DNA of 64,000 bases, taken from the NCBI RefSeq assembly GCF_041248615.1, contig NZ_CP158426.1; one strand, given 5' to 3'. The notes under the pieces are model-generated. The model did not search any database. It had not been told where the DNA came from and saw only the letters and a program-made list of their open reading frames with translations. This DNA is from Escherichia coli (GTDB lineage Bacteria > Pseudomonadota > Gammaproteobacteria > Enterobacterales > Enterobacteriaceae). The position numbers and the translations under genes are program-made. This document shows positions 19,083-19,237 of the stretch, in pieces (the stretch's first letter is position 1; each line of letters opens with the position of its first letter).

Positions 19083-19178
19083 ATGAATGTTTCCAGTAGA
19101 ACTGTAGTACTGATAAATGTCTTTGCTGCTGTTGGTTTGTTTACTCTTATCTCTATGAGATTTGGCTGGTTTATTTGA
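19083..19178 (+). CDS. yncL: Small membrane protein YncL (31 aa)
   Basis: Read from DNA: RBS aaaaggtgg then ATG; MNVSSRTVVLINVFAAVGLFTLISMRFGWFI; followed by a strong terminator hairpin. Confidence 0.6.
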   Translation: MNVSSRTVVLINVFAAVGLFTLISMRFGWFI

Positions 19179-19200
19179 TGTAGTGATTTTGCACGCAGCA

Positions 19201-19237
19201 CGTACTGTCAGAGAAATCAGTGCTCTGACAGTACGCA
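19201..19237. terminator. Bidirectional terminator between yncL and patD
   Basis: Perfect 13-bp inverted repeat cgtactgtcagag / ctctgacagtacg with a 9-nt loop. Confidence 0.5.

Follow-up and report, generated by a model that had tools for sequence, protein, structure and literature searches.

The 31-codon gene between ortT and patD in the 64,000-nucleotide stretch of Escherichia coli DNA analysed here (the window) is, with virtual certainty, the known gene yncL, and the explanation that we consider probable for the locus as a whole is that yncL mRNA carries a protective 3' stem-loop and that its transcription is terminated largely by Rho. Both the gene and its peptide are already known, have been annotated since 2008 and are the subject of a growing number of published experiments; the mildly new point is confined to the reinterpretation of the hairpin behind the gene, which draws on published datasets. 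The initial annotation had taken this hairpin for a terminator of yncL that likely also serves the convergent patD. What stands of this proposal is that the hairpin marks a conserved 3' end of yncL mRNA; its status as a terminator is weakened by the lack of a U-tract and by a Rho region downstream, and its extension to patD is left unsupported by the lack of a U-tract and of a patD 3' end, and by the hairpin staying with yncL where the two genes have become separated.

The yncL gene, its relatives and its neighbours

The features that define the locus are the following:

19083..19178, plus strand: yncL coding sequence, single-TM peptide YncL, Val13 allele WP_001303494.1 (from the sequence, NCBIfam and 49 loci)
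19071..19077, plus strand: Shine-Dalgarno AAGGTGG, read from the sequence, with 5 nt between its end and the yncL ATG
19025..19053, plus strand: candidate sigma-S-type yncL promoter, with a -35-like TTGCGG at 19025-19030, a 17-nt spacer and a -10 CTATACA at 19047-19053 with C at -13
18715..18888, minus strand: ortT, orphan toxin OrtT of 57 aa, divergent neighbour sharing a 194-bp control region with yncL
19275..20699, minus strand: patD, gamma-aminobutyraldehyde dehydrogenase by annotation, convergent neighbour of yncL

The reading frame extends from the ATG at 19083 to a TGA ending at 19178 (31 sense codons and a stop), and its translation, MNVSSRTVVLINVFAAVGLFTLISMRFGWFI, agrees exactly with the peptide that the initial annotation had quoted; the good ribosome-binding site, the single transmembrane segment and the name yncL, all proposed there, were likewise borne out. 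The spacing of AAGGTGG to the ATG is kept in orthologous loci. The GTG within this motif shares the yncL frame in E. coli and is out of frame in Klebsiella, which leaves the ATG as the conserved start. The 19-residue Kyte-Doolittle maximum of 2.22 falls on residues 7-25, flanked by R6 and R26, a hydropathy profile that fits a single predicted transmembrane helix. The peptide scores 72.5 bits against the YncL equivalog NCBIfam NF000537 (cutoff 35), covering residues 1-30 of the 30-position model, and displays the traits of the family, namely 30-31 residues, one hydrophobic helix and the motifs M[ND]VSS[RK]TV-LIN and RFGW; a precomputed annotation assigns PF28073:YncL to the Salmonella orthologue. 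The gene also sits in the orthologous position, divergent from ortT and convergent with patD in E. coli, within the order curA, mnaT, ydcZ, ydcY, ortT, yncL, patD, ydcV, which is the same in MG1655, where yncL is b4598 (K-12 protein YP_001165318.1).

A 421-bp query covering the locus matches 5,415 of 5,426 complete E. coli genomes, and over this stretch the window is 100% identical to strain MEI003. At the yncL position RefSeq gives the label 'stress response membrane protein YncL' in 5,393 of the 5,426 genomes; the remark that small proteins of this kind are routinely missed thus fails for yncL, which the NCBI pipeline names in essentially every complete E. coli genome. Comparison of a 341-bp region with a K-12-lineage genome revealed 2 differing bases, one downstream of the hairpin and one in codon 13, where Val (GTC) in the window replaces Phe (TTC) of the K-12 lineage as the sole amino-acid difference. 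Residue 13 is a hydrophobic position that varies across species: the Val of the window (codon 19119-19121) recurs in several species, other E. coli have Leu, and the Citrobacter freundii group has Ile. As a separate observation, the E. coli laboratory strain LAM_HS matches just the first 139 nt of the 421-bp query, which suggests a deletion or insertion removing yncL.

An exhaustive HMMER search with YncL returned only YncL-like peptides, and a profile-guided scan of one genome per species yielded 50 yncL loci, 49 of them usable. They are distributed over about 10 enterobacterial genera, including Escherichia, Citrobacter, Salmonella, Klebsiella, Raoultella and Intestinirhabdus, with further occurrences in Pseudescherichia, Pseudocitrobacter, Trabulsiella and Pluralibacter. 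All 49 usable loci keep the ATG, a length of 30-31 codons and a Shine-Dalgarno at the same spacing, so that the conservation across Enterobacteriaceae on which the initial annotation had staked the gene is indeed observed. Among the aligned codons third positions are variable in 29 of 30 and second positions in 14 of 30; mean pN is 0.16 against a pS of 0.62 (pN/pS about 0.26, range 0.12-0.47), and the alternative sense frames are closed in the aligned loci. This substitution pattern reflects purifying selection on the yncL frame.

Several records in the same collection merit separate mention. A second YncL-like subtype of 30 aa, MNVSSRTVVLLNVLAAAGLF..SSKYNWF, is encoded at L030, L032, L042 and L050 (Pseudescherichia vulneris, 'Escherichia sp. 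ESNIH1', a UBA7338 MAG and 'Enterobacter sp. kpr-6'); it has neither an ortT neighbour nor the CTATAC promoter motif and is followed by a canonical terminator. The 82-aa cluster representative P0002 matches YncL over 31 residues, beyond which the same frame stays open across the hairpin and into antisense patD, and looks like a natural stop-codon loss (TGA to a Leu codon); in a GWAS paper the annotation tool picked a longer ORF embedding yncL. Two records are probably contaminated or misbinned: the 459-bp contig of L033, labelled Sporosarcina luteola, whose yncL region is identical to that of Klebsiella pneumoniae L031, and a 'Collinsella' MAG contig, L048, with a fragment of E. coli-type yncL.

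Upstream of the gene the motif CGTACTATAC, with A or C as the next base, stands at a fixed distance from the ATG in Escherichia, Citrobacter, Salmonella, Klebsiella, Raoultella and others. Judged from its sequence, CGTACTATAC(A/C) is a putative sigma-S-type -10 element with C at -13 that would serve as the yncL promoter, and transcription would start near 19059; a generic sigma-70 scan of the window made no call at 19025..19053. In published work a Salmonella yncL-lacZ fusion requires RpoS, the orthologue there lying within the 'sRNA' STnc1110, and SELEX with the RpoS holoenzyme gave a strong peak in the yncL/ydcX spacer. Later papers trace to Hemm 2008 and 2010 both the tagging and the identification of YncL, and also the finding that heat shock, minimal medium and stationary phase all induce it. 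The native K-12 protein has been detected by top-down mass spectrometry, and the intramembrane protease RseP cleaves it in vivo; K-12 tagging, mass spectrometry and RseP cleavage in the literature together identify YncL as a translated inner-membrane peptide, and a loss of the translation signal is contradicted by the published tagging, lacZ-fusion and mass-spectrometry results. Its production has been reported to cause partial membrane depolarisation, leading to nucleoid condensation and lower metabolic activity.

In 44 of the 49 loci a divergent ortT is the upstream neighbour of yncL at a distance of 180-200 bp, a far more consistent arrangement than the adjacency of patD. Both OrtT and YncL have been reported to damage or depolarise the membrane, and the published antitoxin test of OrtT cloned only the 217-bp spacer and left the yncL coding sequence out. 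An obligate coupling of the two genes was considered and rejected, as ortT occurs without yncL in Kosakonia and Buttiauxella and four yncL-like loci have no ortT. Two other hairpins were noticed nearby. One, a small GC hairpin with flanking T-runs, occupies 18916-18933 in the ortT leader, some 30 nt before the start codon of that gene; a low-count 'orphan' Term-seq 3' end at MG1655 1517357 (+), window position 18920 on the ortT strand, falls within it, and it may be an ortT leader 3' end or attenuation site. Another, terminator-like, with 10 pairs of which 7 are G-C and followed by ACATTTTAAT, lies inside the 3' end of ydcZ in the region 18364-18396; ydcZ (plus strand, stop ending at 18395) and ydcY (minus strand, stop ending at 18396) are convergent with zero intergenic bases.

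A conserved stem-loop at the 3' end of yncL mRNA

The element following the gene is:

19201..19235, plus strand: conserved stem-loop, the 3'-terminal structure of yncL mRNA, whose perfect stem of 13 bp pairs 19201-19213 with 19223-19235 around a 9-nt loop

The hairpin begins 22 nt past the yncL stop codon, and its arms, CGTACTGTCAGAG (19201-19213) and CTCTGACAGTACG (19223-19235), are 100% complementary. With 7 G-C pairs among its 13 it qualifies as a stable GC-containing stem-loop. The initial annotation described the perfect 13-bp repeat and its 9-nt loop correctly and placed the end of the region two positions too far, at 19237; the stem stops at 19235. No other inverted repeat of 13 perfect base pairs with a spacer of 3-30 nt occurs in the window, and 200 dinucleotide-preserving shuffles of the window contained a mean of 0.04 such repeats (5 of the 200 had any). 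RNA folding yielded -21.6 kcal/mol on the plus and -22.5 kcal/mol on the minus strand (z-scores -5.3 and -4.9), a comparison that does not tell which of the two RNAs the hairpin serves.

In E. coli genomes the 96-nt yncL-patD intergenic region has a median copy number of one, and the stem arm has no second site in the 64-kb window. A dispersed repeat of the REP, BIME or MITE kind is therefore ruled out. A scan of 17500-20800 against Rfam matched no RNA family, STnc1110 included. Within E. coli the spacer is also unusually polymorphic (827 records at 80-90% identity over the 96 nt), and in some E. coli genomes the alignment breaks at the patD stop codon.

A stem-loop is present 20-33 nt past the yncL stop in nearly every lineage, and its pairing is maintained by covariation. 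In Escherichia alone 4 of 15 pairs display compensatory double changes, and none of 500 shuffles reached the observed counts; when Citrobacter and Salmonella are added, such changes are seen in 4 of 10 consensus pairs. Across these three genera the 10 consensus pairs are 97% paired, versus 40-63% when the 3' partner column is slid. The lower stem varies freely with compensation, the loop ranges from 3 to 10 nt among lineages, and G-U pairs occur on the yncL sense strand in Salmonella and some Citrobacter. Together with the Term-seq 3' end described below, the covariation establishes the hairpin as a real conserved 3'-end element of yncL mRNA.

How yncL transcripts end

Published 3'-end data and the sequence behind the hairpin add two features, window positions being obtained by subtracting the MG1655 coordinate from 1536277:

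19238 (MG1655 1517039, minus strand), plus strand of the window: dominant yncL RNA 3' end (Term-seq, Adams et al. 2021, PMC7815308, supplementary file 1)
19239..19274, plus strand: C/U-rich, G-poor spacer starting AGATCTTCTCATACTCTTAC, between the hairpin and the patD stop

The dominant 3' end lies 3 nt after the stem and 60 nt past the yncL stop, and its average Term-seq reads amount to 75,264.6 in LB at OD 0.4 and 536,300 in LB at OD 2.0; it is listed in the M63 minimal-medium sheet too (PMC7815308). The same tables label it 'antisense patD' and not yncL because of its distance of 60 nt from the yncL stop. Transcription further downstream is sensitive to Rho: a Rho-termination region is reported at MG1655 1516753 (-), about position 19524 of the window and 286 nt further along the yncL strand, with upstream/downstream reads of 220/9 without BCM and 106/72 with BCM (PMC7815308). 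Its score is 16.6 (p = 5e-21; PMC7815308), a value which compares 800-nt windows, such that the extra reads in bicyclomycin could stem from antisense promoters inside patD and not from read-through of yncL. Adams et al. further state that 3'-to-5' exonucleases typically process Rho-terminated transcripts (PMC7815308).

The composition of the RNA behind the stem differs between lineages. Over the 40 nt after the stem C amounts to 30% in Escherichia and 31% in Citrobacter, and G to 8% and 17%, respectively. The genera with a canonical yncL terminator have 24% C and 26% G there, and C-rich, G-poor sequence after the stem is limited to the lineages without a U-tract. A GATCTTC(C/T)CAC motif is conserved here in Escherichia and Citrobacter. 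By its composition 19239..19274 is a candidate start of a Rho-loading region; within antisense patD the excess of C over G is moderate only. At stem +3 the RNA ends, bicyclomycin-sensitive transcription lies further downstream, and the untranslated RNA behind the stem has more C than G; this set of features goes with Rho termination behind a protective stem-loop, and the association is correlative.

Based on these observations we propose that transcription from the putative sigma-S-type promoter (-10 at 19047-19053) would yield an RNA of about 180 nt, from around 19059 to 19238, on which the strong Shine-Dalgarno would direct translation of YncL. RNA polymerase would read past the U-less hairpin into antisense patD, where Rho would load on the untranslated C-rich, G-poor RNA and terminate transcription within about 300 nt. 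Exonucleases acting 3' to 5' would then trim the RNA back to the base of the hairpin, which would block them and so leave a stable and very abundant yncL mRNA. We favour this combination of a protective 3' stem-loop, termination for the most part by Rho in antisense patD and exonuclease trimming with somewhat less confidence than the overall explanation given at the outset; the end at stem +3 could also come from weak intrinsic termination followed by trimming.

The reading of the initial annotation, in which the hairpin would act in both directions as a Rho-independent terminator and end yncL as well as patD transcripts, is in our judgement unlikely. A stable hairpin between convergent genes 96 nt apart, with a strong yncL-strand 3' end directly behind it, speaks in its favour, but no U-tract follows the stem on either strand (the plus-strand tail is CAAGAUCUUC, with 3 U in 10, and the minus-strand tail UGCUGCGUGC), neither the 5' A-tract nor the 3' U-tract of a bidirectional terminator accompanies the window hairpin, and a consensus terminator scan of the window made no call at 19201-19235. 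The Escherichia/Citrobacter form, having no U-tract, would thus be a poor intrinsic terminator. In Klebsiella, Raoultella, Pseudocitrobacter and Pseudescherichia a terminator of A-tract, GC stem and U-tract stands at the same offset, and in the first two of these genera it looks bidirectional; the Salmonella hairpin has an extended stem and then the U-run UAUUUUUU. The forms in Klebsiella, Raoultella and Salmonella count in favour of the bidirectional reading. For Klebsiella-type terminators a tally of T over the 8 nt behind the stem is invalid, since the stem finder pairs their T-run with A and counts it as stem. The canonical terminators of Klebsiella and its like and the U-run of Salmonella indicate that the ancestral yncL 3' element was probably a true terminator, of which some activity may remain. 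A further point against the bidirectional reading is the strong Rho region downstream on the yncL strand.

The service to patD fares worse, and we hold it to be quite improbable that the hairpin terminates this gene. No patD-strand 3' end was recorded at MG1655 15170xx in the three Term-seq conditions of Adams et al. 2021. Many Citrobacter and Klebsiella carry an insert of 0.4-2.9 kb between yncL and patD, and at these separated loci the hairpin, along with about 95 nt after yncL, remains with yncL; in both of the separated loci with an identifiable terminator (L010 and L052) patD has a canonical one of its own. Furthermore, ExcludonFinder lists patD-yncL among the convergent pairs with overlapping transcripts in half or more of 58 RNA-seq samples.

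This listing, which places the pair in the core E. coli set of convergent overlapping genes, leads to the idea of an excludon, in which a leaky hairpin gives overlapping yncL and patD transcripts that repress each other by transcriptional interference or RNase III. The extension of yncL-strand transcription into antisense patD upon inhibition of Rho agrees with it, as does the published singling out of yncL mRNA as changed in RNase E or RNase III mutants. However, two transcripts ending just beyond a shared hairpin of 35 nt would also score as overlapping, so that the listing does not by itself demonstrate functional interference, and Rho normally limits the antisense extension (the 9 downstream against 220 upstream reads without BCM). 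The adjacency of yncL and patD is moreover broken in many Citrobacter and Klebsiella, and any coupling is hence not conserved; a literature search for reciprocal yncL/patD expression data found none. We regard such mutual repression as doubtful, and give the same low credence to its Escherichia/Citrobacter form, in which the ancestral terminator would have turned into a leaky hairpin through loss of its U-tract and would let sigma-S-driven yncL transcription run several hundred nt into antisense patD, up to the point where Rho halts it, as a Rho-tuned excludon while stabilising yncL mRNA. If true, it would couple the induction of a depolarising peptide to lower putrescine catabolism.

It is less probable still that the RNA of about 180 nt regulates by base pairing, either as its main or as an additional function, with the ORF secondary. 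In Salmonella the orthologue was originally listed as the sRNA STnc1110, the short E. coli transcript has a stable hairpin at its end and reaches very high levels in stationary phase, and published chimeras link yncL mRNA to RprA (RIL-seq and TRIC-seq) and to KilS (RIL-seq). Against this stand the protein-coding substitution pattern, the detection and phenotypes of the YncL peptide, the lack of an Rfam match in the region and of the 3' U-tail usual for Hfq-dependent sRNAs, and the fact that an mRNA target would give equal chimeras with sRNAs. Finally, although a perfect intergenic 13-bp inverted repeat could be an operator for a dimeric protein or a cruciform, and covariation alone cannot tell DNA symmetry from RNA pairing, action of the palindrome as DNA is scarcely credible given a half-site that is not conserved and a loop of variable length, both unlike operators, the sense-strand G-U pairs in Salmonella and some Citrobacter, an RNA 3' end exactly at the hairpin base, and ordinary terminators in the same position in other genera.

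Relationship to known systems

The favoured reading, a protective stem-loop in front of largely Rho-dependent termination, implies that convergent genes with a perfect palindrome between them need not share a bidirectional terminator, and it affects how the transcription units of yncL and patD are drawn. It also means that one and the same 3'-end position can hold, depending on the genus, a canonical terminator or a U-less hairpin. The closest relative, yncL of E. coli K-12, shares with the window the position between ortT and patD, the length, the ribosome-binding site and the hairpin, and differs by Phe13 in place of Val13. Salmonella STnc1110/STM14_1932 shares the orthologous 31-aa peptide, the ortT-yncL-patD synteny, the -10 motif and the 3' hairpin, the last being more GC-rich and having an extended lower stem followed by UAUUUUUU, which brings it closer to an intrinsic terminator than that of the window. 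YohP and other sigma-S-induced small proteins of E. coli resemble YncL in size, in their single TM segment and in induction in stationary phase or minimal medium, and like YncL they depolarise the membrane and condense the nucleoid when produced; the exhaustive HMMER search revealed no sequence relationship between them and YncL, which is additionally induced by heat shock. At the RNA level the yncL 3' end is reminiscent of the ends that processing leaves at stem-loops in Rho-terminated E. coli transcripts (Dar and Sorek 2018; Adams et al. 2021), with which it has in common a stable U-less hairpin, a 3' end a few nt past the stem and a bicyclomycin-sensitive, C-rich and G-poor downstream region, its own link to Rho being correlative. 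Unlike those ends, yncL has orthologues in other genera that carry canonical terminators at the very same place.
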